From the NCBI GenBank assembly GCA_051294375.1, contig CM119268.1:8737008-8801007 (forward strand): a stretch of DNA of 64,000 bases. Direction: 5' to 3'. Source of the stretch: Paraspadella gotoi. Taxonomy: Eukaryota > Animalia > Chaetognatha. Each line of letters starts with the position of its first letter. The stretch's first letter is position 1. The notes below the pieces were generated by a model. That model was given only the letters and a program-made list of their open reading frames with translations, made no database searches and was not told the DNA's origin. A program made the translations under genes and the position numbers. This document shows positions 8,412 to 59,198 of the stretch, piece by piece.

Positions 8412-8628
8412 TATGGCACGGGGGAATACTATGATACCGGGGCGCGGAGTATCTCACCAACTGGAGTAGGAGCTGCGGTGCGCGGACCTTGTGACCGCCT
8501 CCTGTCACTGGCATGTTAGTACCGGCTCCGTCACATTTTAGCCAGAACTGGGATAACTCCAGGGATTGAATCCGGGACGCACGTTGAAACGAGATGATTT
8601 AGCCTGCTCAGTGCTCGGCCATTCAGAC
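8412..8628 (-). mobile_element. Degenerate 5'-truncated solo LTR (family D): tRNA-like head plus decayed P5 twister
   Basis: On the minus strand: A-box-like TGGCCGAGC, B-box-like GGATTCAATCCC, then AA-ATGT-GACG...TA-ACAT-GCC-AGTGAC-AGGAGGC-GGTCAC..GGTCCG. It ends GCCATA, like family B LTRs. Confidence 0.6.
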
Positions 8629-11142
8629 TTTTTTATATTTTGAATTTTCACTGACTAACAAGAATGTTTAATATCTAATTAAAAACTAGGGCAGAAAGTA
8701 ACTTTTAACCTTGTGTTGTATAGATCTCTCTCTATTTCCAGAATACAAACCTAACATCCCTCTCCCCATTACATTACTAAAGAACAAATATAAGAAAGAA
8801 TAAAGCATATAAAAGAATTAATAATTAAATCTAATATATAGTAAATTATATTAAATGTTTACATTCATTTAGTACAATTTAGTCTAAATTCTAATATAGT
8901 AAAACAAGTAATCTTGCAATTTTTCATAGTTATGGTGAAATGGTTTTGCCCGTTCTGCACTAAACCGCGGTGACTTATTTGAAATATTATACTTGGGGCA
9001 AAAACGCGAATACGGCCTTTCTTAATTTTCAGTCTGAATAAAAGAAAAAAAATCGACGGATTTTGTTTTCATTCGTCGAATTCTTTCGATCTTCAAATAT
9101 TTTATCTCGCTCGAGTATTTGTTTTATTTTCATAATTCTACTGTTTATATTTTTCTTTGTTGGACCGAAGGTCACGGACTTTTTTTTTCAAAAAATAGGG
9201 GGGGGGAGAAGACGGAAGCGCGATGTTGCCGTTGGATGATGGATGATGTTGATATTTGAAGGCGCATTCCGCGATTCGAGTTGGATGGATTCGATGGGTG
9301 ATCCTTCGCCCCGACTGTTTTTCGCGACAGAAAAATAAGTGAGATAGAGAGAACGAAGCATTTCTCTTCGCATATTTTAAATAATGATCATTGCTTCTTT
9401 TGTTTGGTTCATTTTGAATTAAGAAATTTTCTCGAACGTTTACATTTCTGTCATTCTTTCATTCTCTCTGGAACGCTCTCTCGATCCAACTAACCCGTCT
9501 AGAGGGAGTGCCCGCGTGACTGGTTTTCCGTTTGTGAGCTTCAATGAAAACACATTCGTCTTTACCCCCAAATATCGCGTCTATTCTGTCAATCGTCACA
9601 AAGCTCATATCTTTTCGGGGTGTTGCTTCCGACGATCATGGATGAAAAAAATACAAAAATTAGCAGGCAAGACCCATCAGACTACAAATGAAAGACTATT
9701 AAGTGGCGTAGAAACTAGAAAGTTTCAGTAATATCATCGCCCACCAAGCAAGTCGGATAATCGGATCTAGAAAAAACATTTTCGTAATGAATTGGGGAAA
9801 TTCCGGAACGAAATAAAAACCGTAAAACAACTCGGAAAAAGTCAACCGAAAAAAGGGGGAAAAAGACACGATAAATCAGAGAATTTGGGGATTTTTCCGA
9901 TCTCCCGAAGTGCAAATATTCGAAGCGAAATAACTCGATAGATCCAATCCAAGGACAGTGACGTTCATAATAGCTAGAAATTGGAAACGTTTCGCGACAA
10001 ATTTGTGGGAGTGTTGAAACGTGATATATAACTGACATTCCTTCTTAGTTATTCATGGGCAGTCAAATCGAGCTTAAAAGACAAAGCAATGCTATTTGAT
10101 ATTTGACATTTTGTTGCTCGTTTTTTTTTTCGCAATTTAAACTTTTAAAAAATCAAAGATGGTTTTCTGCATACTATGCAGTATGCATTTCATAGATAAA
10201 ATTAATTAAATACCTTTACCTTTGTAGTTTGTTTCAAGTCATGATTATCGTAATAATTTCTTAACACATTCCTTCATGTTCTGTATAATTTAATTTGCAG
10301 AGACAAGATTTACAAAGACTGAAAGAGTACATCAAATAATAATTCACAAGCACGATTTAAACTCTTAAATATGATTTACTGAGACTGACTCATTTTTTAG
10401 AATTAGCTGGAAACAACATGTCACAAGAAAAAAGTTTGCTAAAATCTATTGGACAAGAAATGGTTACTCTTTATTAAACTCTTCATTTAATTATATCAGG
10501 AAGAATATAATGACATATCACATAGACCTAGCATATGAGACAAAATGACAATTGAGAATAATTAGTGCGATCATACAGGAAACCAAAAATTATTTTCCAT
10601 CGCTTGGGCATTGTCAGTTTGTAACTGTCTTTGGGAAATTGTTACAACCAATATAAAAATCATTCATTCCTTCAATAAACTAACTACCTTGGCAAGATAG
10701 CTTGTTTCTTGCTAGATTCTTGCCCCTGACTTTGGACTGGCTATTTTATTTTTGAAAAGTTTCCAAAAGTGGCGTCTGGCTCGGGATAAACGAAAAAAAC
10801 AAAACAAATGATTCCGCCGACTAAATGTCACACATTTCAAAGAGGCTGTAACTGAAACGGCTGTAAGTGAAACGGCTTTATATTCCTGATGAAATTGAGG
10901 CTTAGCTATTTTTTTATCACGAATTAATTGAACAAGGAAATGTTCATGCAAGCCCCTCCGCCTTTTCTATCCTCTTCCGCGTCGCAATCGTTTCATTCTT
11001 GCACTTTTGTCGGCGTTGAAATCCGGCCCCCATAACTGACCGACTTCTAATGGCGCTGCACATTCTGACAACGGAAATGTTGTTACCTTTATTAATCTAC
11101 TAGACTGACCTTCAAATATTCTACGATATCCGATTTACTCAC

Positions 11143-11725: not shown

Positions 11726-12100
11726 GGCAATGTCGTTGCGAGGTTTGAGGTTCAAAGAAAAACTAAGTTTAAACCAAGATAAGATACAAATCTTTGGCAA
11801 GTTTTTTTTCGTTGACAAACGTTTCAGTTCAGTAAAGATTTTCTCTTTAGGGTTTCTTTTCTAATTTTTTTTTAACAATTAAAAAAATTATTGTTTTAAA
11901 CAGACTCAATAATTAAAGGAACAATGAGAGTGATCGAAAATGAAAGCGCTACATCTAAAGTTCTCAGTGGCTTATTAAAATCATGAAATCATTAAAATCA
12001 TGAATCATAAAAGTTATAGGCCAAATCTTTTATTTATCCTTGTATGGCTTATGCAACAGCGGGTTTGCCTGTGATGCCCATTGGGATGGGGCATCTCACT

Positions 12101-12178
12101 GTTGGCTTTGGGGCTTCCGACCCTCAGTGACGCCTCCAGTCATGGCGCGGTTACCCTAGGACGTCTCGCTTTGCCAAC
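12101..12178 (-). ncRNA. P5-type twister ribozyme, family B 3' LTR copy (predicted cleavage 12153/12152)
   Basis: P5 GTTGGC/GCCAAC, UAA at the cleavage site, P3 TGAC/GTCA, P4 GGG-TCGGAAGC-CCC. There is a one-base deletion in the GACC strand. Confidence 0.65.
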
Positions 12179-12579
12179 GAGAGGAAGTTAGGACTGTGGA
12201 TGGAACACTACGCTGGGATGGTGTGTTCCCCCTCTAGCCATGGATTGGCTGAACGGATGTGGACGTGAGGCGGTGTGAATATACCGCCACAGGATCCCGG
12301 GCCAAGACATCACTCAGGTTCCTCAAGCCTGAGAGGTGTCTGACAAGACTGTTACCATAGTGGGAGAGAGAGAGAGAGCGCGAGTTGTGGGGGCATAGCG
12401 TTTGTCGTAGCGTACTCCCAGGGGCATAGGCGTTTGTCGTAGCGTACGCCGAAGTCGGCAGGCATAGGCGTTTTGTGCGTAGCGTACCCTGAGAAGGGCG
12501 TGGTTCGAATAGTAGGGCCTCACCACTTATGGCAACAGCCGGGTTGCCTGTGATGACCCATTGGGTGGGGCATCTCACT

Positions 12580-12661
12580 GTTGGCTTTGGGGGCTTCGCG
12601 ACCCTCAGGACGCCTCCAGTCTACTGGCGCGGTTACCCTAGGACGGTCTCGCTTTGCCAAC
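12580..12661 (-). ncRNA. P5-type twister ribozyme, family B 5' LTR copy (predicted cleavage 12635/12634)
   Basis: GTTGGC-AAA-GCGA-GACC-G-TCCTAGGG-TAA-CCGC-GCC-P3-GGG-TCG(C)GAAGC-CCC-..-GCCAAC. There is a one-base insertion in L4. Confidence 0.65.
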
Positions 12662-12964
12662 GCAGAGGGAAGTCCGTTAGGACTGTGGATGGAACACTAC
12701 GCCTGGGATGGTGTGTTCCCCCTCTGAGCCAATGGATTTGGCTGACGGATGGTGGACGTGAGGCGGTGTGAATATACCGCCACACTTGTCCCTTTTCAAG
12801 AGCGAAGACTCAAAGGAGCTGTGCCTCCCAACTTAAAAAAAAAATCGATTTTGATGTTATGGTGAACTAAAAATATATATATATCATTTATATTTTATAT
12901 TATATTTTTATGATCATGCAAATTATAAAATTATGATCCTATTAAAAAGTGTTAACTTATAGAC

Positions 12965-13187
12965 TGTGGCGGTATATTCACACTGCCTCACATCCATCGA
13001 CGTTCAGCCAATCCGACTGGCTTAGTGAGGGAACCCACCATCCCAACCGTTGATTTCCATCCACTTCTCTCTGCTTTGGCTAAGCGAGACTGTCTTAGGG
13101 TAACCGCGCCAATGACAGGAGGCGTCACTGAGTGTCGAAGCCCCCAAAGCCAACAGTGAGATGCCCCATACCCCGGCTATTGCCATA
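12965..13187 (+). mobile_element. Solo LTR, family B (diverged)
   Basis: Termini TGTGGC...GCCATA; flanks AGAC/AGTC (3 of 4 TSD match); aligns with 12528-12784. Confidence 0.85.
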
Positions 13188-13622: not shown

Positions 13623-16600
13623 ATGTGGTCGCACCTTGTTTCCGTTGTCGTCGCAGCAGCATTGGTCAATGGACACGCGCCGACGTGGCCAAAATACTTT
13701 CGGTCTCCCGTCAAAGTTTACTACAAGTAACAACTAACATTAAATTTTCTTTTATTATTTATCGCACTTGAATTCTTTAAGAATTTGTCCTTGAGCTTGT
13801 ACTGTTCGCGAAATGTTACCATGAAGTTCTCAAAATTATCCAACAAAAGTTATTTTCTCTCAATGTCGTCTCGAATTACTTTGTCTTTTCACCTGCTAGG
13901 TTCTACGGCGAACCGATGGACTGGCAGTCGGCTCAGGAAAGATGCAAGAAAGATGGGTCTCACTTGGCCATTGTCGACGACGACGTCCCAAAGAAGCTCA
14001 ACCAGAAGCGTCACTACATCATGAGGAAGCTGGAGGAAGACGCATGGATAGGGCTACGAAATGGGAAGTGGGTCGACGGTGAGTTGGTACAGATGTATAA
14101 CTATAAGCCAAGAGAATCCCTTGCTTCTTTTGGACTCGGAAGCGTAGTTTGGGAGTCGGCGTTTTAAAATTTTTATTCGTATAAATATAATTATATATAT
14201 ATAATTAATCTATTCATTCAGATTTTCATTAGATTAGTGTATTTGTAATTTTTTTTATTGGCACATCGTGATCGTTTATAATCGTTTAATTGCCAGGAAA
14301 AAATATGAGGCATTCTAATTATATGCCGGGATCTTCGTCGGGCGAATGTGTCTTTGCTCAACACGGAAAAGGCGGCAGCAGAAGCGACGACGGAAAATGG
14401 CGAGGCGAAAATTGCGCTGCGAAAAAAGTATGAATCTTTTTTTCATACTTAATAAACTAATGGTATCAATTAATTGTAAAACAAAACGTCAAAGCCACAA
14501 ACAACTCTATCATCTATGAGCTAATATCTTGTAATAATTTTAGTGCTTCGTTTGCGAATCGGACAGCTTTTGCGTGGTTAAAAATAAGTGCAAGAACGGC
14601 GGTCAGTGTCAAGGTGTCGGGGACCGTCAGACTAAGTGCGTTTGTCCGGACGGATTTACGGGAGACGATTGCGGGAATGACAACCGTCCTTGCATTGCAA
14701 CTAAGCCTTGTTTGAATGGTGCACAATGTGTCCCTCAAGGCACGAGCTACCACTGCAAATGCAAAGCTGGATTTCAAGGGGTGAATTGCGAACATGATGC
14801 ACGTCCCTGCATTGCTTATAACCCTTGCTTGAATAAAGGACAATGTCTCCGTAATGGTGTTGGATTTACTTGCAAATGCATGGATGGTTTTAAAGGAAAT
14901 AAGTGTGAGAAGGATGTACGTCCTTGCATTGCCTTTAATCCTTGTAAAAATGGAGCGAATTGTGTCCCAAACCGATTAACATATACTTGTAAATGTCTTC
15001 CTGGATTCAAAGGAAAGGATTGTGAAAAGAAGTGTGTCAGCGTGAGTAAAGGTGTGCATAAAGAACAAAGTAGTTTATTTACTTTGTTATTTATTAATTT
15101 ATTAAATGAAAATATAAAATTACATATTTTGTCAACATTTCTCACTCTCATCGTCTTAATTTGCTTTATCAGGAGGTCTTCCCGAGAAGTTGGATTTGGT
15201 TTTTGTTGTAGATGGCAGTAGAAGTGTGAAACCCGGGCCGTTTAAAAAATGTCTTGAGTTCATTGACAAGATCGTGGAAAGAGTGGATGTTTCTCCAAGT
15301 AAAGCAAGAGTTGGTTTCATTGAGTTTTCTAATAAGGTAAGATAAAGCTTGGTTTTATACTCTTTATTTACCCTACCAACACACCACATAAATAAATTTC
15401 CTTTCCTCTGTTTTAATTTCTGTCTTGACCCTCTTCACCTCTTGACCCGTTTTATTTTTCCAATTCTTGTTTTAAAAAGAATTTTTTCCTCTCTCTCTCT
15501 CTCTCTCCCTCTCCCTCTCTTTCTCTGTTTACACTAATGTATCAACAATAGAACGCTTGTTGGGGTGGGATCGGGTTTCCAACAAGAATGTCTGCTTATA
15601 TTGTGAGTTAGAAAGAGCCCATGCCCATTGTCCACTAGAAAATTAGAATTGTTCAGTTGTTAAGTACCATTTATGAAAACTCAAAAATTGAATAATAATT
15701 TTTGTTCACTGAAATCAAAGTCACATTATAAAAGTAATTGATATTAATTAAGGTTAACGAAGTAGATGTAATCGACTTTAAAAAGTCAGAAGACCTTGGA
15801 AAGGCCGGTTTAAAAAGTGAAATATCTCATACGCATTATCACGATGGAGGAACGCTCATTAGTAAAGGTCTGAACCGCGCGATCAAAATGTTTCAAGAAG
15901 AAGGTAATGATTAAGAAAGGTGTTTTTTTCAAATGTATCTTTTCCTTTTAAAATTAATTATATTAGTTATTAAGCAGAATGTTGATATTCGAATTTGTTT
16001 AGGAAACAGTGAAAAACACGCTATTCAAAATAAAAGACTTACGAATGTATAAATGTAAATACAGCTAATAATAACTATTTAAACTTTTTTTCGTAACAGG
16101 CCGAAAAAACGATGCTTCTGTTGAGAAGTACATGGTGCTGTTATCCGACGGTGCCAGTTATGAATCAGATGTGAAAGCGATGTCGTTGGCGGTGACAACT
16201 CTGAAAAATCTACGCATCAAAACTTTTGTCGTCGCAGTTGGTGACGAAGCGAAAACCGAAAGAGCACGGTACTGTCTTTTGACGAATTTCAAGTCTTCTT
16301 GAATTTGCCTTAGAGTCATCGTATATGCGGTATGAGTACATAATATTAGTGAATAACATGTGTTATTATGAAAACGCATATTATTTTTATCCCACCCGGT
16401 CCTCATCAAACTCACAAACCGCAACCAACTCACAAACACTCGGCAAATAAATATATCCACAACCCAGCTAACACTATCTCAACCAACACAACCCCAACAA
16501 CGACAACATAGCTTAATAACTTACATACCAATTACCATCTATTGGTAACAAACTTAGACAATAGACATGCATTTAAAAACATTATTGCGTGGCGGTATAT

Positions 16601-18288
16601 TCAGTTTTTTTATTCACACCGCCTCACATCTACCATCGTTCACCATATTGGCTCAGAGGGGGAACTCGCCATCTCAAGCGTTGCGTTCCATCCACAGTCC
16701 CAACGAATTCCATCTGCATTGGTAAAGCGAGACCGTCCTTGGGTAACCGCGCCAGTGACAGAACGCGTCCAAAGGGTCCAAAGCCAACAGTGGGATGCCC
16801 CATCCCAATGTGCATCACAGAAGGGTCAGGACCAATAGTTGCCTAATTGTGGGGGCCCCACCACTATTTGTTAATAGAAAAGGGGTTTATAAGCTTTCTT
16901 GTAATTGCCAAACCCGACCCAACAACAACGCCACTTCTTACGTAAGAAAAACAAGCGTTTCCATAAAAAAAAACGAACAGAACAACATCGAAGAGATTCC
17001 GCATCATCACAAGAACCTGTAGTCCTTGTAATTTTTTCGAACAAAAACCCAAAAAAAAAACAAGCTTAAATTCGATTTGCATGTTCGTGAGAGCCTGGAA
17101 ATTCGTCGTCAAGGGATAGAAGCGGGAAAATTCTTCGACGACGATCTCTCTAAATACGTAAAAACACACGCATGGAAGCCCCTTCTACAAAAACTAAAAG
17201 ACTATGGTGGACTAAAATCCACCAACCGTTCATCAGCGGCCATTGGTGCCGAGGCAAGTCATTCGCCTCCCAACCCAAAGGTCCGGGGTTCTAGCCCGGT
17301 GGTCGTCTGGCAGTTAAGAGGGACGGGGCGCTTAACCCGCCTGTAACATGGTGTTACAGCCTGATCCGAAGCTCAGGGACTGCTTATATTGAACGGTTCT
17401 GTCATTAACATATATCAATAATCACTGTCTCTTCATTGGTGAGCCCGACTTCCGAACACAACAGCAACAACAACACTTTCAGGCGACATGCCTCAACCTG
17501 GCGATGCACTTTCCGCCCACAACACATCAGGCGACATGCCTCAACTTGGTGACGAACTTTCCACCAACAACAACAATTCACAGAAGAGACGCAACAGACT
17601 TCTCCCTACGGGAGGGGGGATGTATGGTGGACTAAAATCCACCAACCGTTCATCACGGCCATTGGTGCCGGAGGCAAGTCATTCGCCTCCCAACCCAAAG
17701 GTCCGGGGTTCTAGCCCGGTGGTCGTCTGGCAGTTAAGAAGGACGGGGCGCTTAACCCGCCTGTAACATGGTGTTACAGCCTGATCCGAAGCTCAGGGAC
17801 TGCTTATATTGAACGGTTCTGTCATTAACATATATCAATATTCAATAATCACTGTCTCTTCAAGACTATTGAAGATGGGTCGGGGTTCTTCTCTTTCTTT
17901 CTCTTGAACTTTTGTCCTCAACTTTGACCTCATGCCTCTTTTCCTCTTTTCTCTCTCTCTTTCAACATTTTTTTTTACATTTTGGGGTCTATTTTTCTCG
18001 CATTTACTTGTACCATGAACTATGTTAACAGAAATATATTGCTCAGTTAAAAATAATATGCGTTTTCCTCATAACACGACGTTAATCACTAATATTAAGT
18101 CTTCTTGAACAAAAAAGGTTTGTTTATATAATATTTATTTGATAAAATAATTGGAATTCGTTTCACCTTTCAGAACACAATTGAAGATGGTGGCAATGGG
18201 AAAATCAAGTCATGTTTTCGAGGTAGACAATTATGATACTTTAAACAATGAAGTCTTATCGAAGGTGATCGTTTCACAGTGTGATTAA
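13623..18288 (+). CDS. Secreted C-type lectin + 4x EGF + von Willebrand A domain protein (multi-exon)
   Basis: Signal peptide MWSHLVSVVVAAALVNG; C-type lectin motifs MDWQSAQERC and AWIGL; four six-Cys EGF repeats; vWA motif LDLVFVVDGSRSV (MIDAS DxSxS) and MVLLSDG. The last exon ends SQCD-stop at 18288. Confidence 0.85.
16500..17202 (+). mobile_element. Decayed Penelope-like element, C-terminal GIY-YIG endonuclease region, in the last intron of the lectin gene
   Basis: Frameshifted peptides LPSIGNKLRQ, KGVYKLSCNC...YVRKT, RESLEIRR and HAWKPLL, typical of Penelope/Poseidon endonuclease C-termini. Confidence 0.7.
16588..16845 (+). mobile_element. Solo LTR, family B, nested in the Penelope remnant
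   Basis: CGTGGCGG...GTTGCCTA flanked by a perfect 4-bp TSD ATTG (16584-16587 and 16846-16849). Twister P4/L4 is partly deleted. Confidence 0.85.
17236..17306 (+). other. tRNA-like (Gly-CCC-like) Pol III promoter module inside the family A LTR (second copy about 17656-17726); not a functional tRNA gene
   Basis: Acceptor stem GCGGCCA/TGGTCGT, A-box-like TGGTGCCGAGG, anticodon loop CTCCCAA and T arm CCGGG-GTTCTAG-CCCGG. The anticodon stem is unpaired. Confidence 0.75.
17309..17384 (+). ncRNA. P5-type twister ribozyme, family A 5' LTR (predicted cleavage 17333/17334)
   Basis: P5 GGCAGTT/GACTGCT; general-base strand GACG at 17322-17325; UAA; T2 GC/GC; P3 TGTAACA-TGG-TGTTACA; P4 CCTGA-TCCGAAGC-TCAGG. 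The L4 CG pairs with the CG of GACG (T1). Confidence 0.75.
17729..17804 (+). ncRNA. P5-type twister ribozyme, family A 3' LTR (predicted cleavage 17753/17754)
   Basis: Same as the 5' copy except for one G>A in the P2 strand. Confidence 0.7.
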
Positions 18289-19021
18289 AAACTTACCGAG
18301 TTTGTTATCAAGATATTATTTCTAGAATTGATTTTCGCAAATCTATAAATTATAATAACTTTTGATTTTAGATTTACTTTGCTCTTTGCAGTTATAGACT
18401 TTTTATTTACAAGTTATTTGAAAATCATGACTGTAATGGGTATAGCTGTGTATTATTATTAATACATTGTTGCTCAGATGGTATTTTAATTTTTAAAAAC
18501 TTACGACGTAAGTTACGTTTCGCAACCAAACCTGTCTTTTGTTTGAGTTGTCGCTCTTTTCGACGGTGCTGGCCTCTGCTAACGAAGCAATTGAACAGCG
18601 GATTCTATATTTTCTCTTTTCATTCTCGCGCACATATAAAGTTGTTGTCCATCTATTTTCTTCCCATATATTCCAACGTATATATATTATATAATATATA
18701 TATATATATAGTTTGACTGAGATTGAGAAATGAGAAAAATTTTAAATATAATTTGCATTGATATACGGTTCCAACTTCCAGTTACTACTAGCAGCCAAAT
18801 TTTTATTTCAGTTCAGCTTACGCGAAAACAATTGCTTCAAAAACAAAATTGATAATCGTAATTATTTAGAACATTACCTACAATATCTTTAGCGATTCTC
18901 AATGGAACGGCATTATTGAGATAGGATCAGTGTCTCTTAATCAGATCTTCGTTAATTTTTTCCTTTTTTGTTAATTTCTTTTTTCATTGCAGAATTATTA
19001 ATTAATTTTATAATTGTCACG

Positions 19022-21781
19022 ATGGGATCCCTCTTCCGCTCGGAGGAGATGGCCCTCTGCCAGATGTTTCTACAGTCTGAAGCAGCATATGCTTGCGTAT
19101 CCGAGCTTGGTGAGCTGGGCCTTGTCCAATTTAGAGATTTAAATCCCGACGTTAACGCCTTTCAGCGAAAATTTGTCAATGAAGTCCGGAGGTGTGATGA
19201 GATGGAAAGAAAATTACGTTTCATTGAAAAAGAAATACAAAAAGATGAAATTCCGATACTTGACACCAGAGAGAACCCCGATGCGCCTCTACCAAGAGAG
19301 ATGATCGATCTTGAAGCCACCTTTGAGAAGCTTGAAAGCGAGCTTAAAGAAGTCAACACCAATGCAGAAGCTCTAAAGAAAAACTATCTAGAACTTACCG
19401 AGCTTAAGCATGTTTTGCGTAAAACGCAATTATTCTTTGACGAGTCGGAGCGCAATGTTATTGACGTCGCTCAAACAGCTTTTGTGCATGATGGCAGCGA
19501 TGGCTCTGCTCCAGGAGGCGGTGGCGGATCCCCCTTGCGATTGGGTTTTGTTGCTGGTGTGATACTCCGAGAAAAACTGCCAGCGTTTGAGCTCATGCTA
19601 TGGCGGGCGTGCCGAGGAAACGTTTTTCTGAGAACCGCAGAAATTGATACCCCGCTGGAAGACCCTGTTACAGGAGATGAGGTTTACAAGTCCGTCTTTA
19701 TAGTTTTCTTTCAAGGCGACCAGCTGAAAACGCGTGTCAAGAAAATATGTGAAGGATTTCGAGCCACTCTATATCCCTGTCCAGAAACGCCGGCTGAACG
19801 GCGAGAAATAGCTGTCGGCGTGATGACGCGCCTCGAGGACCTCAATACAGTTTTGGCTCAAACGCAGGAACATCGTCATCGCGTTCTATTAGCGGCCGCC
19901 AAGAACATCAAGGTTTGGTTTATAAAAGTAAAGAAGATTAAGGCTATTTACCACACCCTAAATCTATTCAATCTCGACGTAACTAATAAATGCTTGATTG
20001 CTGAGTGCTGGGTTGCAGTCTCCGACCTTGAAAAGGTTCAAAGAGCTCTGTTACGTGGAACAGAGTCATCTGGGAGTTCTATCCCTTCAATTCTTAATCG
20101 GATGCCAACCAATCAAACGCCACCCACCTTCCACAGAACAAACAAATTTACAGCTGCTTTTCAGGAAATTGTTGATGCTTATGGCGTTGCCAACTATCGG
20201 GAAGTGAATCCTGCGCCCTTTAGTATCATCACCTTTCCTTTTCTATTTTCCGTTATGTTCGGAGATGCTGGCCATGGCTTTATTATGTTCCTCTTTGCGC
20301 TAATTATGGTACTGAGAGAACGGTATTTTCTCGCAAATAAAGATGACAACGAGATTTGGAATATTTTTTTCGGCGGACGTTATGTTATTCTTTTGATGGG
20401 TCTCTTTTCCATTTATTCTGGTCTACTTTATAATGATGTATTTTCTAAATCTGTCGACATATTCGGTTCATCATGGATACCTAGTGATGAATACAGCGAA
20501 AAAAGGCTGGCAAAAGAAAAAGAATCCATCATGCTTAATCCTAATGACTCTTATACCATGACTCCTTATCCTTTTGGACTCGACCCCGTCTGGCAAATGG
20601 CTGAAAATAAAATCCTTTATCACGATTCACTTAAGATGAAATTGTCTGTTATTTTTGGCGTCTCGCAGATGCTTTTTGGGACAACTCTTTCATTATTCAA
20701 TTACAGGTCACTTTTTTTGAGGTTAATGATGTTGTTGAGACAGGTTTCTAAAAAATATCATTATGATTAAATTTTTTTATAACAATTTTATTATTTTTTA
20801 TAATTGTAGTCTAATCGGGCATAATTTTACTTTCGCCGACCGGGTTTGAGGGGGTTTAGAGGTAGGGTTAAGAGGGTTTAGGGTTAGGGTAATTAAGTAA
20901 TAATTCTTGTAAAAATTTTTAAGTGATTTTTCAATTTTTTAAAAATTTTCAGATACTTCAAACAGCCTTTAAACATTGCGTTTCAATTCTTCCCGGAAGT
21001 AATTTTTATCAGCGTCACTTTTGGTTACTTGGTCATATTGATTTTCGCCAAATGGCTAAGCGCTTTTTTCTTTGAGTATTCAAACCTTGCGCCATCCTTG
21101 TTGATTGGTCTCATTAATATGTTTCTCTTTAAATATGGTGATGATATGCCTGATTCCGCAAAACCTTGGTTCCCTGGCCAAAAGGCAATTCAAATTACTT
21201 TTGTCCTCGTGGCACTGGCTTGTATTCCGACGATGCTCTTTATCAAGCCTTGCATGCTTTACAAAAGGCACCAAGCGAGGAGAACACATATGTCTGGGTC
21301 AACGAGCATCGACGAGAATGCGGAAGTGGTTCACCATGATGAGCTGCAGCCGCAGGATGAACCCGAGGAGGAGTTTGACATCAGTGAAATTGCAATCAGG
21401 CAGGCGATTCATACAATTGAGTATTGCCTTGGTACTATCTCTCATACTGCTTCATATTTGCGGTTGTGGGCCCTCTCTCTTGCCCACGCTCAACTGTCCG
21501 AGGTGCTGTGGAACATGGTCTTGCGAATCGGACTCTCCTGGCGGGGGTGGGTCGGAAGTGTAGTGCTTGCGGGGACCTTCGCTTTCTGGGCTGTGCTAAC
21601 TGTCGCCGTCCTTTTACTCATGGAGGGGCTATCGGCTTTCCTTCACGCCCTTCGTCTTCATTGGGTCGAATTTCAGTCCAAGTTTTATACAGGGGAAGGC
21701 TACAAATTCCAGCCATTTTCTTTTGCTATAATTATAGATGAGGTTAGATTTTCCATTGGCAGTGATTCGCAGGAGAAATAA
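19022..21781 (+). CDS. ATP6V0A1: V-type proton ATPase V0 subunit a (exons 19022-20706 and 20953-21781)
   Basis: MGSLFRSEEM, FRDLNPDVNAFQRKFVNEVRRC, FPFLFSVMFGDAGHG, SHTASYLRLWALSLAH and HALRLHWVEF. Single phase-2 GT-AG intron. Confidence 0.96.
20817..20890 (+). mobile_element. Partial MITE related to 48022-48151, with TTAGGG-like interior, in the V0a intron
   Basis: Shares AATTTTACTTTCGCCGAC(C/T)GGG and a GGGTTAAGAG/GGGTTAGGG interior with the 48022 element. Confidence 0.7.
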
Positions 21782-22280: not shown

Positions 22281-22507
22281 TGAAGAGACAGTAATTATTG
22301 TTATGTGTTAGTGACAAAACCGTTCAATATAAGCAGTCCCTGAGCTTCGGATTAGACTGTAACACCGTGTTACAGGCGGCTTAAGTGCCCCGTACCTCTT
22401 AACTGCTAGCGACCAACGGGCTAAAAACCCGAACTTTTGGGTTGGGAGACAAATGTCTTGCCTCCTGCACCAATGGCCGCTGATGAATGGTTGGTAGATC
22501 CACCATA
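22281..22507 (-). mobile_element. Solo LTR, family A (diverged; twister general-base G mutated to T)
   Basis: TATGG...CTCTTCA on the minus strand; flanks TATT/CATT (3 of 4 TSD match). Confidence 0.88.
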
Positions 22508-22960
22508 CATTCAAAATAAACTTTATCTGTACCCACAAGATCTTCACTTGCACCTGGTCTTTAACAAAATAGCAATTTTTTGGGGAAAATTGTTATTATT
22601 TTAAATCTTTTTTAAACAAACACAACAAAAGAGAAAGGATTTATACACAATCTTAATATTTTTTAATAAGTATTTTATAAGGGGTAAAATATTATTAGTA
22701 CCGCATTAACAGTTCAGTTTAAGCCTTTGAAAGTGATTTACATATATTGGCGCAGCCACTGGTTGATTATTTAACTTAGGAATGAGGATAAGATAACCTT
22801 TGCTATTGCTTGTGAAGTAAAGTGAATTCTAATTGACAATGCAAATTAGTGTTATAATTAAAATTATTAATTGCATATGTAATAATTTCCAAATATTCGG
22901 GAAAGGTTTGAGCAGTTATCGCGGTTTAGAAACGTTTGCCTCACTCAGTTAGGTCCGCAT

Positions 22961-23264
22961 NNNNNNNNNNCGGGCTAAAAACCCGAACTTTTGGGTTGGG
23001 AGACAAATGTCTTGCCTCCTGCACCAATGGCCGCTGATGAATGGTTGGTAGATCCACCATACATTCAAAATAAACTTTATCTGTACCCACAAGATCTTCA
23101 CTTGCACCTGGTCTTTAACAAAATAGCAATTTTTTGGGGAAAATTGTTATTATTTTAAATCTTTTTTAAACAAACACAACAAAAGAGAAAGGATTTATAC
23201 ACAATCTTAATATTTTTTAATAAGTATTTTATAAGGGGTAAAATATTATTAGTANNNNNNNNNN
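22961..23264. other. Scaffold gaps enclosing a 284-bp duplicate of 22417-22700 (probable assembly artefact)
   Basis: N runs at 22961-22970 and 23255-23264; the enclosed sequence is identical to the upstream segment. Confidence 0.85.
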
Positions 23265-25352: not shown

Positions 25353-25494
25353 CAGACCAAAATTCATGGTCTTGGAAAGTTCATTGAATTCAACGAGAAA
25401 TAACGAAAACGATAAGAGAAAAATGGTTTAAATATTGAACTCTTTTGGAAAATGGAAATAAAATTAAAACTCCAATTATAGTTTAGCTATGTTT

Positions 25495-25760
25495 TGAAAT
25501 TGGTACAACTAATAAAAATTATTCATTCATTTAATAAATAAGCTCTCTTGCCCCTGACTTTGGACAGGCTTCGATGGTTTAAGGCCTCCATCACTCTTAC
25601 AAGATAATGACATAGCAAATCCCTGCAAGCTTGCAATCAAGACTCTCTCACTCACGGAGTACCTGGCTTCCCTATCAACGAACTGGTATAATGTTTCAAA
25701 GAAAGTTTCGATTGTATGAAAAGACCACTTTCTTAGGTATTAGATCGGTGAATACTATAT
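25495..25760 (+). repeat. Unclassified interspersed repeat (inverted copy of 40980-41265; short piece at about 10715-10742)
   Basis: Shared blocks CCCTGACTTTGGACAGGCTT, GGCTTCCCTATCAA and TGTATGAAAAGACCAC. Confidence 0.8.
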
Positions 25761-26611
25761 TATATAAGACTTTTATTGAAGATTAATATGCAGCAATCGT
25801 GAAAAGGACAATTGATTATTTATAAGTGGATTGATTCGATACATCTCTCAATAGTTATAGATTACCGATTTTATCTGAAGAGCTCTTTAAACCTCGGGTA
25901 CGATTTTATACCCTGAAAACTTTTTAACCACTGTATAATTCGGGAAAAAAAAGAAAATCTCCGTGATCCTCCGTCGAAGGCCCGCCACCAAGAACGTCAA
26001 CAATCGCTAAACCGTCCCAATCCGGGAATTCTCCGGAATGTCCCGCCGTTTCGTCAAGCAACTCTTCCACTGTTCGCCGACCGGGGAATTTACAACCGCT
26101 TCTTACATTTTTTTTTCGGGGGAAGGCCGTCCGAAAGTGGGGCATTGGGGCGCCAGACATTTGCGAAACGGATGGAATGGGGAAAGCGACGGAAGGAAGA
26201 GAGTGGGAAGAGACGAGAACAAGGAAAGAAGAGAGATTTTGTGTACGTATTCGCTTTTCGGGACGATTGTCATGTCCATCGTTTGATTCCCCTAGTATTC
26301 TGTGACAGCTCGACGCCGAATAAAGGGAATAAAAAAAAGAGGTCCAGATGGTTTTCCCCTTTATTCGCCGGACTCGTGTTTTTTTCTTATTTTATTCTTC
26401 CGGAAGGACGGTTCCAGCTTCCACTCGCTGGGGTTCTTTTTTTTTTAATATTATTTAGTACCTTAGTTACTTAGTTAGTTAAAAAGCCTCGTTGAAAAAT
26501 GGTCGCACTTTTGCACCCGTTCCAAACTGAGTACTAGTGAGTAGTTTATGGAAACGTAAAATTTTGCTGATGGTATTTTTTCCGGGTCGGCTGGTCTGCA
26601 AGCATCTGCTT

Positions 26612-39306: not shown

Positions 39307-40801
39307 CTCAAAGAATTAAATTTTAAAAAATTAAAAAAACAAGACTCCTTTTAATATTAAATAAACGCCGATTCTTCACGCTTCAAATTCGTACGAATTA
39401 AGTGGCAGGCAGACAAATCCACAATCGTGTTTAATTTCCGACTGTTTTGTGTATGCTGGTTTTCGTTAGGTAGGGTCTAGGGACTAGGGTCTAGGGACTA
39501 GATTTTAGAAAACAGGTTTTTCGACGGATCGACGATGCGACCATCGACATAAAAGATGAAAAAGAAATTTATTGGTTTAAAATGCTTTTAATGGTTTCAG
39601 TGGTTGCTAAAGAAAAAACCGCGTAAAATTCAATCAAATCCTCAATTTTTTACGGGTAAAACTCCTTTAACAACGGAAAAAAGAAATAAATTGCGATCTT
39701 GACAGGAGAGATGTCCTGACCCATTTTGTTCATTTGTTCATGTTTGGGCGGCGGCGCGCGCGTCGCTCCTCCACCTCCTTTTCCCTCTGTACCAAGTCGT
39801 CCTCATCGTTGTCGTCGTCGTTCTCGGCTTCTCTCCCGCCACCGCCACCGCCGCAGCCACGCCTCGGCCTTACCTTCTCCCGTTCTCGTCCATCCCGACC
39901 TGTTCAAGCCTTTTTTTATTTATATAATTCGCGGTACGTAATCTCAAATATTTAGGGTTTCGGTGTTTGGTCGAGGAAGTTGAGACTCAAAATTCTTCGT
40001 CTCTCGTCTGCTTTTTTGTAATTTTTTTACGTCGTAACTGAAAATATGGGCGGTTGTCGGTGTTGCGTAGGCGGAATGCCAAGCCCGGTGATCGTCAAAA
40101 TTTTAATTCATTTCTGGGAAATTTGCTGACAATAATAGAATTGAATTCCTAATTTGACTTTTATTTTGTAGATCCGCCAAATTAACCCTTATAACAACCA
40201 CTAACCATGAAAATAAATCTTGGAAAATACTGGAGGTAAAGGATTGCCCAAGGACTAAAAGTTATCATATGATTTTATTATTAAATTACTTAACCAATTT
40301 TTTTAGCGTTTAGAATTCTGTTACTATATTTGTCATCATTCCAAAAAATTCAAAATAGACGCCACAGGAAACCTCTGTTGAAGCATCAAAATATTTTTAG
40401 CCGGATCTGCTTACAGTAGATCCCGGCTCTATAATTCACTTTGTCGGTTCATCGGTCCACTCCCACAATCTTGTCAGTAAGTCACTTAAATCATGTCAGA
40501 ACATCAAGTTATGATAAATTATGAAAAAAAAATTGTCTATCAGTCTGTCCATCTCTCCTTAGCTTTGAACGCTATTACTCAGGAGTTGAAAGGGCGATTT
40601 ATGTTAGGACCCGCCGGTCCGTCCCTCCAGAAAAACGCCCCGAGAATCTTTGATTCGAGGAACTTCTATTGGCGAGCCGCTTCGGTCGTTCAGGGAAACC
40701 CTCAAAGGCAAGAATTGGCGGCCGAAGTGGATCGACGATGATATCAAACAGTTTATCTCTTTGAGTTTCTGAAGAATTCTTAAAAAGGGTACCCTTAATA
40801 C

Positions 40802-41268
40802 CTTGCAGAAACCTGCTATGTTATTATCTTGTAAGTGTGATGGAGGCCTTAAACCACCAAAGCCTGTCCAAAGTCAGGGACAAGATAGCTTATTTATTAA
40901 ATGAATGGATAATTTTTATATTGGTTGTACCAATTTCATAAAATTCAGCTCCTTGTATTTTGATGCTAGTGCGGAGTACAATATAGTATTCCCCGATCTA
41001 ATACTTAAGGGAGTGGTCTTTTCATACAATTGAAACATTCTTTGAAATATTTATACCACTTCATTGATAGGGAAGCCAGGTTCACTGGGAGTGAATAAAT
41101 AAGACTGTGAGAGAGTCTTGATTGAAAGCTTGCAGAAACCTGCTATGTTATTATCTTGTAAGTGTGATGGAGGCCTTAAACCACCAAAGCCTGTCCAAAG
41201 TCAGGGACAAGATAGCTTATTTATTAAATGAATGGATAATTTTTATATTGGTTGTACCAATTTCATAA
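40802..41268. repeat. 327-bp-period tandem duplication (about 1.4 units) of an interspersed repeat
   Basis: CTTGCAGAAACCTGC... starts at 40802 and again at 41129, identical for about 140 bp. Confidence 0.85.
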
Positions 41269-43061: not shown

Positions 43062-46000
43062 ATGGACGTGGCCGTCGCGGAATTCGTCGCGCACACCGGG
43101 TCTGACCCCGGTTTAGCTCGTGACATCCTGGAGAACGCTAAGTGGGACCTTCACGCCGCCTACAATATTTTCAACTCTCTACAACCGTTGGAACAATCGA
43201 GAAATGGATTCTTGGCCAAGATTCCAACGTCGACCGAGCGCGACGATGGCGACGACATCGACGAAGAATCTTATACGTTTCCCCTGAACTCCACCAAAGA
43301 CTCGGTGAAGGAAGACGAAGAGGAACGTGACCCCTCCGAGGATGAGGACGCACCTCCGTCTCCGCGGGAGGATCGTCGATGCATCGACTGCATCAAGTCG
43401 GACAACCTCGTCAACCTTAAAGCCAAGTCCGTTAAAGTAAGTCGAAGTTTACGAAGCTGAGTTCATTTTGCTAACTAGTTTTTAGTTACGCCGCGAGTAC
43501 TCGCGGGGCAACTCAATATAAGTCGGTGGGTCGGTATATTGGTCGATTGGTCGGTTTATCTCACTTACGTTAAAAATGTTCAGAATTCAGGTAATGCTTC
43601 AATGCTTCATCAATTTAGTTCACATTTGGTTGGAAGGAATGGTACCATATGTAGCGGTAGTATTTCATACCCCGTTACTCGTCCGAGAATCAGCAGCACC
43701 TATGGCGCCGCAGGTAGCACGAGCTCCTCCCAACCCAAAAGGACTCGGATTCGCGCCCTGCTGATTCACACAAGAAAGCGCGACAGTGCGTCTAACCCAG
43801 CTGTAGTGACGGACTACAGCCCGACCCTAAGTTCGAGACCTTGTGTACAATGGAAGGTGAACTGCTCGCGGCATCGTCGTGTTACCTCCATCGCCATAGG
43901 TGCTGCTAATTCTCGGACGAGTAACGGGGTATGAAATACTACCGCTACACATAAGACCTTTAACGTGCATATGTATCATACTTGTGCCGTGTTCACCTTA
44001 AAAAAAAACCATATGACCTAAAATTGAATGCAGCATATCTCATAAAATACTGAGGTACTTGTAGACTAGTATAGTATCCGTGAAAGATTGTTGTGCTTAT
44101 TTTTCATACTTGTGCAATGTGCAGTCATGTGACCGCGCAGAACTACGGTCACGTGATCACAAAGTAAATGTTTTAGTTGAAACTTTGCAGATAAGTCATC
44201 AACCATTAGAAGTTTGTTGCATGTCTTTTATGAAAAATTGCAATATTACTTGTTTTACTACATTAGACTTTAATATTAGAGAATTGACAAAGTTTTTGTT
44301 TGCAACGAATTTTATTTATAGTTGAACAGACATGTTTCGACTTGTTTTACAAGTCTTCATCAGCGTTTGATGAAGATGAAGACTTGTAAAACAAGTCGAA
44401 ACATGTCTATTCAACTATAAATAAAATTCGTTGCAAACAAAAACTTTGTCAATTCTCTAATTAATAGTAACAACTAAAAAGAAAGGATTACTTCAATATG
44501 ACTTTAATATTAAAATTTTAAAATAAATGTATTTTATTATTTTAAATAAAATAAGGTTTATATCCGTGCAATTGTATTTTTTTATTATATCATTGTAATT
44601 ATTAAAAAACTTAAATCCCATTTTTCTTAAATCTTTATATTTATATCCTTGATTTTGTAGTTTTTTACTTACAGCCCTGGCTGAAAAATCTGAAAGTCTG
44701 AACAAATTCTTGCATATCTAATTAACTGACTAGTGAAAACTACAAAAGCTGCTTTCCTCGGAATACAACTGTCCATATATGGATAATTAACAATATCAAA
44801 ATTAAAAGCATCTCTTTTATCATAAACGAAAAAAATTAAATTTTGGTTCTGATTTAATGTTTATATCTAAATAATTAACATTTTTATCTGGATCATTTGA
44901 TTTATTTAGGGTCAGAGCTGCTGGATATATACTAGAAAGATGTGTTTGAAGTTCCTGAATATCTGCTGAAAAAAGATCATCTATATATCTGTAACAATTT
45001 TTAAATTTTCTAGCTACTATTAGATTATATTTTGATAAATTTTCTATATAACATGATTCAAAATAAAATAATAATAATTTAGCTATATCTTGACCTGAGT
45101 CTAATCCAATTGGTATACCTAAAGTTTGCTTATAAATTAAAGACCCGAATTTGACAAAAACATTATCTAAAATAAAATTTAAAATAATATGAAGGTCTTT
45201 CTCGGTAAAAGAAATATAGTTCTTTTTTTTTATAGATGAAAAGTATGCTTAAAGTTTACATTAATATATTGTTTATTTTCTCTTGCAAAAATATTTTTGA
45301 ATAATATTTTTAATTTACTTTTTATTTCATTATGTGGGAGTGAGGGATATAATGTTGAAAAGTCATAGCTTTCTAAAAAATCAGTTTTTAGTTGTTTAAT
45401 ATTTACTTATCTTTCGTGGTATCATTTTGATCACAATTGATTTTCTTAGCTTTTATGAGTTTCTTATAAATTTTGACCATTCCATTGCATTCTGCATTGG
45501 TATGCCATTTTAAAGTTAGATTTGAAAAGGCTAATTCAAAATGCCTCGCCCTGGCCCTTGTATTTTAAATGAAGAGGTGAAATTCCTATTTAACTCTCTC
45601 CTCTCTCTCTCTCTCCTTCCCTTCTTCCGATCTTAAAACTTGTTTTACTAAATTTAGATCGCTCAAAAAAATTGGGTTAATTGATCGTCAATGGCTCTCT
45701 ACTTGGAAGGAATTTTGAGGAGTTCCTCCGAAGCTTGTAATCTATCTTACATCCGAGCTCAACTTTTTTTTACCGCTCAACTTTTAACGAGTTTAACCGA
45801 CTCGTTCGTTATCAATTTTTGCTAGCCTAAGAACTCGAAGGCTGAAATCTGATAACATCGGGCGTAAAGAATTATGTCGATACTTGTTAGTATCACCTCG
45901 TGTCATTCTGAAATTGGTTTTATCGCTGGATTTTACCAATTTTTTAATCTTCTCTCCAGTTCAGTTCCTCTAGGCTGCTCCTCTGCAGCTCTCCTCTTGT

Positions 46001-57402: not shown

Positions 57403-59198
57403 ATGGCACTTGACTTTGCCGCAGGCTGTGCAGGAGGTGAGTTCTACTTCTAATGATAAACCTTCAGCATTAACATAATATTTATCATAGTTTTTTTCAT
57501 CACTTGAGCTCTTTCTCGTAGTTCTGACCAAGCTCAATAGTCAATAATCTAAATGTTTCTCCTTTTGTTGTCATCTAGGAGTCGCCGGTGTACTCGTGGG
57601 ACATCCTTTTGACACAGTCAAAGTACGCTTACAATGTCAAGATTCTCAAAATAAAATTTACCGCGGAACCTTCGATTGCTTACGAAAAATCGTTGTCAAA
57701 GAGTCCGTAAGTTTGACGTGCTAACTGTTTCAATTCGGTAAAAATTATCGTACTTAGACCGAATAACATTTTTACAAAGAAAGAAAGATGATTTTAATTT
57801 CTGTTGATATTTTTCTTTGCTCAGCCCCTTGGTTTGTACGCCGGCGTCACATCTCCCTTGTTCGGACTCGCCTTCATCAACGCCGTCGTTTTCGGCGTAC
57901 AGGGAAATGTCGGACGTCGCTTTTCCGAACCCAACTCTCTCAAGTCTCTCTTTATTTCCGGTGGGGTGGCGGGATTCGCGCAAACATTCATCTGCTCTCC
58001 CATGGAGCTGACAAAAACTATCGTGCAGGTACATGCTAGGATTCTTTTTTATATTTTTTCAAAAAATGTAAATCAAAATGTAAATCATATACTAGGTAAA
58101 AATAAATTTGAGTTGCAAGCACTATGTAATAGCCGTAGGCCGATAAATGAAACTTAACCCCTGAAAAGACAGTAATAATTGTGACAGAACCGTTCAATAT
58201 AAGAAGTCCCTGAACCCCGAACCCCGCACCAATGGCCGCTGATGAACGGTTGGTGGATTTTAGTCCACCATACCCCAATTATTTATTATTAGTTAACTAA
58301 TGTTTGTTAACATAAGAACGGAGACGATAAATTTTATTTAACTACATCGTCGAGAAAGGGGGGGCCTGGAGCTGCAGTTTCGGATCTAGCAGCAGCCCAG
58401 CAAGTTATCCTTAGCATTTCTAAATTGAATTTCTAAAATGAATTTTTTGAATTATTACTTGTATGACAATATATCATTTATATTGCGATTAATTAAGGGC
58501 ATTAATACTGCCATTATTGATTTAAGGAATCCAAAATTATAATGCCATGAACCTATAGTCACTTGCTTACTTCTTCAGGTGCAGCACGATCACCCCAACG
58601 CCCCACAGTACAAATCTCCCCTCGATTGCTTCATTAAACTTTTTAAGTCTTCTGGATTCCGCGGAGTTTTTCGCGGGTTCGGACTAACAACGCTGCGAGA
58701 AGTTCCTTCATTCGGAACCTATTTCGTCAGCTATGAGGTGCTCTGCCGTAACTCTCCAGACCCGGCCTCGATCAAGGTATCATAATTTAACAAAGTTCAT
58801 TATTGTTGCGAATAATGTTGCGTTTTTGTGGTGATCATAGCAGCCCAAGCTCAAGCTAAAGGAAAAATTGTTCTAAAATTTAATTCTGCTTCTTTCAGGG
58901 ACTCTCATATCTCCTCCTGGCGGGAGGTTTGGCCGGCTGTTGTTCTTGGGTGGTCACTTACCCAGTCGACGTGATAAAATCTCGCTTTCAGGCCGACGCG
59001 GCGTGTCCGAACCCGATGTACAAAAACGCGCGGGACTGCGTCATTCAGTCCTACCGCGCCGAGGGATGGCGCGTGTTCTTCACGGGCCTGGCGCCCACGT
59101 TAGTTCGGGCTTTCCCCACCAACGCCGCCACTCTCACAGTCGTCACCCTCATTCTCAAATATTGCAAGAACGATTCGGACGTGGATACGAACTGCTGA
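57403..59198 (+). CDS. SLC25A29: Mitochondrial carrier SLC25A29-like (basic amino acid/ornithine carrier; 5 exons)
   Basis: MALDFAAGCAGGVAGVLVGHPFDTVKVRLQ, SPMELTK, YPVDVIKSRFQ and RAFPTNAAT: three carrier repeats. Confidence 0.85.
58162..58272 (-). mobile_element. Internally deleted solo LTR, family A
   Basis: Termini TATGGTGGACTAAAATCCACC...TTTTCA with TSD CCCC at 58158-58161 and 58273-58276. Most of the tRNA and twister is deleted. Confidence 0.88.

Follow-up and report, generated by a model that had tools for sequence, protein, structure and literature searches.

Twister-like motifs with self-complementary P1 linkers in retroelement families of the chaetognath Paraspadella gotoi: a candidate double ribozyme

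Twister ribozymes are described in terms of the helices P1 to P5, and a conserved G and a conserved A play catalytic roles in them. The closest described counterpart of the elements reported here belongs to another ribozyme class, the double hammerheads found in Penelope elements and in the satellite-2 retrozymes of amphibians (PMC7229834, PMC4209133, PMC6765202). In these RNAs one helix is reduced to 1-2 bp and capped by a palindromic loop, and tandem copies can share that helix; the rationale given (PMC4209133) is that cleavage occurs in multimers and monomeric circles are spared. For example, in the axolotl hammerhead, whose reduced helix has a single base pair capped by a palindromic tetraloop, 6% of the monomer was cleaved within an hour, and the dimer was cleaved much more (PMC7229834). 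Taken as an analogy, this closest precedent is graded and not all-or-none. Plant LTR retrozymes are non-coding elements with a type III hammerhead ribozyme in both LTRs, a 4-bp target-site duplication, a PBS, a polypurine tract (PPT) and a unit-length RNA between the two cuts (PMC7761336). The same review describes metazoan retrozymes as having no LTR, PBS or PPT, and mentions truncated twisters in RTE elements. Twisters with a weakened P1 are also found in animal retroelements, as the T-variants of Schistosoma Perere-3 and RTE non-LTR elements (PMC8501958). The T-variants differ from the cores described here in that they are type-P1 and single, lie at the 5' end, and have a P1 that is completed by target DNA.

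In this study, a 64,000-nt stretch of P. gotoi DNA (the window) was analysed. Twister-like cores of five families, A to E, were distinguished in it (Table 1), and a profile of 11 aligned cores found no further core family in the window. As in the double hammerheads, one helix is reduced to 1-2 bp with a palindromic cap that tandem copies could share; unlike them, the cores have a twister-like fold, P1 is the helix that is shortened, and cleavage is predicted only. The cores resemble the type-P5 twister (Rfam RF02684) in strand order, the G-A and T1 strand, the UAA, the T1 and T2 pseudoknots and, in part, P4/L4, with a weak match of family E. They differ from it in a P1 of 6-8 nt, compared with hairpins of 15-26 nt in phages, and in a 2-bp P2 with a 3-nt junction in families A and E. 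The LTR elements share with plant LTR retrozymes the features listed above, including a predicted unit-length RNA, and differ from them in their animal host, the twister-like ribozyme, a unit of 420-480 nt and, in family A, the TA...CA ends.

Family A shows the structure of an LTR retrozyme: two LTRs, a 4-bp target-site duplication, PBS-like and polypurine motifs, and no ORF, the only stop-to-stop frames being short (80-107 aa). The PBS-like motif may be of a tRNA-Trp type. The two LTRs are the same in 231 of 232 aligned letters, and the duplication is exact at two of three sites, with three of four letters kept at the third. The predicted cuts would delimit a 420-nt unit (17334-17753). Family A is abundant in the genome; 18,881, 3,206 and 1,095 contigs matched it in three runs from the same organism (figures that are not copy numbers), and the ends of contigs matched to the element piled up at 17203 and 17435. 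In a second organism two contigs matched the element, neither covering the linker. No variant was seen in 17310-17347 among the best 40 of 92 rows, and the weaker rows could include CpG decay. At position 17309, about half of the depth carried a variant that changes a G.U pair of P5 to A-U. In one run, the T1 strand carried C>T at 17324/17744 (9.5%) and its L4 partner G>A at 17368/17788 (12-14%), the C>T being rare in two others; the similar levels perhaps reflect a U-A compensated subfamily, or else CpG decay. The LTRs of family A start with TA and not TG, with the 4-bp duplications adjoining, and the homologous LTRs of families B and C start with TG.

Table 1. Positions of the elements, core helices and P1 linkers in the window (+, forward strand; -, reverse strand)
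Feature	Position	Strand	Remarks
Family A element, non-coding, 660 bp	17203-17862	+	LTR, internal region, LTR
Family A 5' LTR	17203-17435	+	TA...CA ends; target-site duplication AGAC at 17199-17202
Family A internal region, non-coding	17436-17622	+	PBS-like TGG motif from 17437; polypurine tract 17610-17620
Family A 3' LTR	17623-17862	+	followed by AGAC at 17863-17866
Family A twister-like core, LTR1	17309-17384	+	descriptor scans, 0 violations
Family A core, P5	17309-17315/17378-17384	+	helix coordinates
Family A core, P2; G-A	17320-17321/17336-17337; 17322-17323	+	helix coordinates
Family A core, T1; T2	17324-17326/17366-17368; 17339-17340/17371-17372	+	helix coordinates
Family A core, UAA	17333-17335	+	predicted cut 17333/17334
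Family A core, P3; P4	17341-17359; 17360-17377	+	helix coordinates
Family A P1 linker GGCGCT, 5' LTR	17327-17332	+	G.U, G-C, C-G self-duplex; central GCGC
Family A P1 linker GGCGCT, 3' LTR	17747-17752	+	predicted cut 17753/17754
Family A solo LTR	22281-22510	-	linker GGCACT (22389-22384) broken, as is the conserved G before T1
Family A solo LTR	58162-58272	-	ribozyme core deleted; target-site duplication GGGG
Family B two-LTR element	12048-12784	-	linkers TCCTAGGG at 12643-12636 and 12161-12154; PBS-like motif at 12525; unit 482 nt
Family B solo LTR	12964-13175	+	linker TCTTAGGG (13093-13100); pairing kept via G.U
Family B solo LTR	16590-16830	+	linker TCCTTGGG (16736-16743) broken; P4/L4 deleted
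Family C decayed LTR	43638-43961	+	inverted copy of own 5' part; in-register linker TGCGTC (43787-43792)
Family D LTR copy	8435-8625	-	8-nt linker AGCCGGTA at 8527-8520, inner GCCGGT 8526-8521; cleavage triplet and L4 broken
Family E tandem element	40795-41268	+	147-nt repeats, 327-nt unit; linkers AGGCCT at 40844-40849 and 41171-41176
Family E single copy	25489-25764	-	linker AGGCCT (25587-25582)

On paper, the fold resembles a type-P5-permuted twister, from which cleavage is predicted. A descriptor of the P5-permuted twister matched the window at four places without violation, LTR1 of family A and the three copies of family E. A stricter descriptor recovered three of those loci together with one A+T-rich chance locus, and five shuffles gave 0, 0, 0, 0 and 1 matches. 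The T1 pseudoknot covaries (CGG/CCG in A, UGG/CCA in E, CCG/CGG in B; GGG/CCC in phages), as does T2 (GC/GC and AC/GU), and no two of families A, B, C and E share a P5 sequence. The G-A strand and the UAA at the cut site, in P5 order, are present in A, E, the intact B copy and the majority of D contigs. The L4 motif U-NNN-AA-GY in the P4 hairpin fits A, E and one B LTR; in family D a C replaces the first A of AA, and the loose-end consensus reads CA. P1 did not form an intramolecular hairpin of at least 3 bp, the linker being 6-8 nt long, and Rfam aligned the P1 of family E as 3 bp with a zero-base loop. P2 has 2 bp in A and E, not 4 bp. Against Twister-P5 (RF02684), family E scored 25.6 bits, below the gathering score of 37.6, and no Rfam twister match was obtained for A, B, C or D. 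The motif is not filed under RF02684, since P1, P2 and the score all depart from that family; as the Rfam threshold misses such motifs, a large class may be unannotated. No hammerhead match was found in the window at E-values up to 1, or in families A and E at E-values up to 10. Unit-length folding z-scores were modest, at -2.56 (A) and -1.82 (E).

These departures could indicate a twister-derived structure that does not cleave or needs a protein, kept as a scaffold for end joining or reverse transcription. The scores under the Rfam threshold and the short P2 agree with this reading, as do the L4 change in D, a competing hairpin in A, and the poor cleavage of Penelope minimal hammerheads even as dimers (PMC4209133). 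We consider it very unlikely, given that the G-A, the UAA, T1 and T2 are kept across diverged families whose flanks differ.

The segment that would close P1, between the T1 strand and the UAA, is 6-8 nt long in all five families when read in register; in the 5' LTR of family A, 17325-17335 reads GG-GGCGCT-TAA. The initial annotation had described this segment as self-complementary in each of families A to D. For family A, GGCGCT was found in register in both LTRs. The CCTAGG of family B (12637-12642) proved to be the inner six letters of the 8-nt linker TCCTAGGG (12643-12636, minus strand) in both LTRs of the two-LTR element, and the GCCGGT of family D is likewise the inner six, with an A.A mismatch flanking the inner duplex. 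The GTGCGT reported for family C (43786) is off register by one base, its first letter being the final G of the T1 strand; the in-register linker TGCGTC forms only a weak duplex with itself (-3.3 kcal/mol), with U.C mismatched at the ends, and T1 and P2 are broken in this copy. A parse of family C as an ordinary 14-nt hairpin was rejected, as it costs P2, P5 and the alignment to family A. Family E, absent from the initial annotation, has the linker AGGCCT in three of three copies, from two insertions. Conservation across families thus held for A, B and D, and for the added E: a palindromic reduced helix with compensatory change was found in four of five families, C failing in a decayed copy.

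The tetramers at the linker centres, GCGC (A), CUAG (B), CCGG (D) and GGCC (E), are all Watson-Crick palindromes and all different. For a phage control, 46 loci with the P5 pattern were taken, 39 with at least three of four P2 pairs being kept and 7 set aside. Their P1 segments (23 distinct) were hairpins of 15-26 nt, and none of the 18 even-length linkers had a palindromic centre. A loose mini-P1 pattern matched at least 120 loci in viral contigs, a set that serves as a null alone; among the 120 matches listed, a Watson-Crick central tetramer occurred in 5, and all three positions paired (G.U allowed) in 6. Palindromic 4-mers make up 3-8% of the 4-mers in these LTRs. The statistics rest on four scorable families. 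Four different palindromic tetramers would have p 1.5e-5 to 9e-5 if the families were independent, and the innermost pair alone gives p 0.004-0.01 across families. Because the families share ancestry and are not independent draws, we prefer the cautious p of 1.4e-3, obtained when the same palindromes are counted as three compensatory double changes. The self-duplex energies of the linkers (computed as -8.3 kcal/mol for GGCGCT of family A) rank within the top 0.5-1.2% when compared with all 6-mers or with sampled 8-mers, and within the top 0.4-4.7% when GC content is matched. All three copies with broken linkers (the family A solo LTR, family B at 16.7 kb, and family C) also carry other lesions in the core. 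Judged by sequence comparison, the compensatory differences among four families indicate that the linker palindrome is real and is selected at the RNA level for self-complementarity. A protein site at the DNA level was rejected, given that the families have different tetramers and that G.U pairs occur at the linker ends. In metagenome contigs, 81 loci showed a pattern of the family A type, but none matched the window by BLAST and they look like chance. One of the at least 120 viral matches to the loose pattern passed T1 and P4; its 6-nt linker CAGTTG self-pairs with G.U, and it may be either a chance match or a phage mini-P1 twister.

According to the initial annotation, the linker is too short for a normal hairpin loop. 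This is correct only if all of its pairs form; as drawn, 1 bp with a tetraloop is available in A and E, and 2 bp with a tetraloop in B. A monomeric mini-twister may accordingly be envisaged, in which 1-2 bp and a tetraloop, or a two-base loop, suffice and the palindromes are inherited or incidental. P1 is described in a review as dispensable for cleavage of the env22 twister (PMC6154101), engineered twisters work with a shortened P1 closed by GAAA (PMC5052635), and P5, with its 5-8 bp, would tether the 5' strand locally and form first during transcription. Twister without P1 is reported to cleave inefficiently (PMC8501958), and the T-variants found by relaxing P1 are active (PMC8501958). Such a monomer is nevertheless unlikely to account for the linkers, as there are four different palindromes whose innermost pair changes without constraint from any monomer hairpin, and, within a solo repeat, closing a 1-bp hairpin is predicted to cost 3.6-3.9 kcal/mol relative to leaving the linker open.

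The alternative, in which the linkers of two repeats pair with each other, could be scored because the cross-repeat double twister is fully nested in a two-repeat transcript. Constrained folding was limited to families A and E, since the differences between the B LTRs are probably sequence error. The constrained ensemble was -213.1 (A) and -114.4 (E) kcal/mol for the cross-repeat fold with the linker duplex, -209.5 and -106.2 for two open monomers, -204.5 and -105.0 for the swap without the linker duplex, and -201.7 and -99.0 for monomers with 1 bp and a tetraloop. Relative to two open-linker monomers, the cross-repeat fold thus gains 3.6 kcal/mol in A and 8.2 kcal/mol in E; relative to two monomers with a 1-bp hairpin, the gains are 11.4 and 15.4 kcal/mol. 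Without the linker duplex, the swap loses to open monomers by 5.0 and 1.2 kcal/mol; the cross-repeat fold is therefore predicted to win only if that duplex forms. In the free fold of family E the linker-linker duplex had a probability of 0.99, with P5 swapped. In that of family A it had a probability of 0, as a local hairpin traps the core, while P5 and P3 swap; in family B, whose LTRs are ridden with indels, it was 0.02-0.03. Compared with the free ensemble, the competent fold is higher by 22 kcal/mol in A and 13 kcal/mol in E. Pseudoknots do not enter these scores, so the energies indicate feasibility only. In the predicted unit RNA of family A the two ends are held together, which would suit ligation. 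The P3 of family A (17341-17359), which has 8 bp and a 3-nt loop, likewise exchanges strands between the LTRs when folded freely and could act as a seed for cross-LTR pairing.

In our judgement, the linkers probably pair across two repeats, which would make cleavage much faster than in a single repeat. Each repeat would adopt the type-P5-permuted twister-like fold with P1 cut down to a self-complementary linker of 6-8 nt. In a two-repeat transcript, the linkers would join as a helix common to both repeats, with a catalytic core on either side of it. One core, a type-P1 twister whose P5 loop is the spacer, would consist of the 3' half of repeat 1 (LTR1) and the 5' half of repeat 2; the two remaining halves, 5' of repeat 1 and 3' of repeat 2, would form the other. 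A shared P1 requires a palindromic linker because the repeats are identical. Double cleavage would release a unit of 327-482 nt, which may be ligated to a circle as in retrozymes. The single ribozyme of the circle, with a P1 of 1-2 bp and a tetraloop, would be slow, and the template for reverse transcription would thereby be protected. In the initial annotation, the two LTR ribozymes were proposed to swap P1 strands. A cross-repeat fold is indeed predicted, with the modification that the whole 5' strand (P5, P2, G-A and T1) changes partner. The further proposal that the ribozyme fires only when both LTRs are transcribed was too strong, since twister tolerates the loss of P1 and the monomer precedent is graded; monomers probably keep weak activity. 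An animal class of twister retrozymes, LTR and tandem alike, that uses an obligate double twister, active only with two repeats per transcript and leaving a circular RNA that cannot cut itself, is conceivable but somewhat doubtful; such an element would in effect count its own ends. Protection of the unit circle would explain the palindrome better than the sparing of introns suggested earlier, because solo LTRs no longer replicate.

A palindrome selected in RNA might instead serve as a kissing or dimer-linkage signal that packages two RNAs in the particle of a helper element, as in Ty1 or retroviruses, the ribozyme being active as a monomer. This would equally explain the covariation; the GCGC of family A lies in an 8-nt loop in the free fold, and the RNA of LTR retrotransposons is packaged in dimeric form (PMC6844567, PMC5454406). 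We regard it as quite improbable, because the palindrome sits exactly at P1, by the cut site, where cleavage would separate it from the 5' end of the unit RNA, because it is also found in family E, which has no LTR features, and because its position matches that of the helix III palindromes of hammerheads (PMC4209133).

The LTRs of A, B, C and D are homologous, B, C and D being distant homologues of A. The family B two-LTR element has a PBS-like motif and no clear PPT or target-site duplication. Its LTRs differ at 21 gap positions, many of them single-base indels, compared with 2 mismatches, and these indels are probably sequence error. Family D was matched by 204, 199, 99 and 21 contigs in four runs, with no variant of at least 5% at 8521-8530. 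Nearly all depth is canonical at the cleavage triplet, unlike the copy in the window, which is thus a broken member of a family that keeps its linker. Family E shares little with family A outside the core. It is a tandem repeat in which no PBS-like motif was found, so the palindromic linker is not confined to LTRs; its sequence resembles a non-LTR retrozyme with a twister-like core. The family E copies (40795-41268, 25489-25764, 10630-10691) have a fixed 3' end and varying 5' ends. Inverted 5' parts of LTRs occur head to head in family C with its own (43638-43961) and in two family B copies 180 nt apart (12685-13064).

Dimer gating by a palindromic helix is known for the hammerhead, and no description of it for twister was found in the literature searched. 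Titles and the starts of abstracts mentioned neither a twister that is dimeric or palindromic nor one located in LTRs, although published alignments and supplements may hold short-P1 sequences; nor did the available portions of PMC6765202, PMC7761336, PMC10085705, PMC13725137, PMC5052635 and two preprints. The terms "dimer" and "palindrom" do not occur in the main text of PMC8501958, as far as it was available. If the double twister is real, hammerhead and twister reached dimer gating separately, twister being the second class with the switch of the double hammerheads, and gating by a palindromic helix may be a general strategy of retroelements whose copying passes through small circles. Retrozymes would then extend to twister-bearing LTR-type animal elements, which are absent from reviews (PMC7761336, in the portion available). 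A natural twister that senses copy number would also be a useful switch for RNA circularisation tools.

Some other features of the window were noted. An exact 284-bp duplication at 22417-23254 adjoins two N gaps and, like the gap-rich family B LTRs at 12048-12784 (21 gap positions and 2 mismatches), is a sign of assembly noise. A gene resembling V-ATPase subunit a, named by eye, spans 18956-21781 in two long frames (604 and 284 aa) with one short gap, and lectin-like and EGF-like frames were also recognised by eye. A MITE-like inverted repeat, 87 bp long and near-perfect, lies at 44275-44461, its arms separated by 13 nt.
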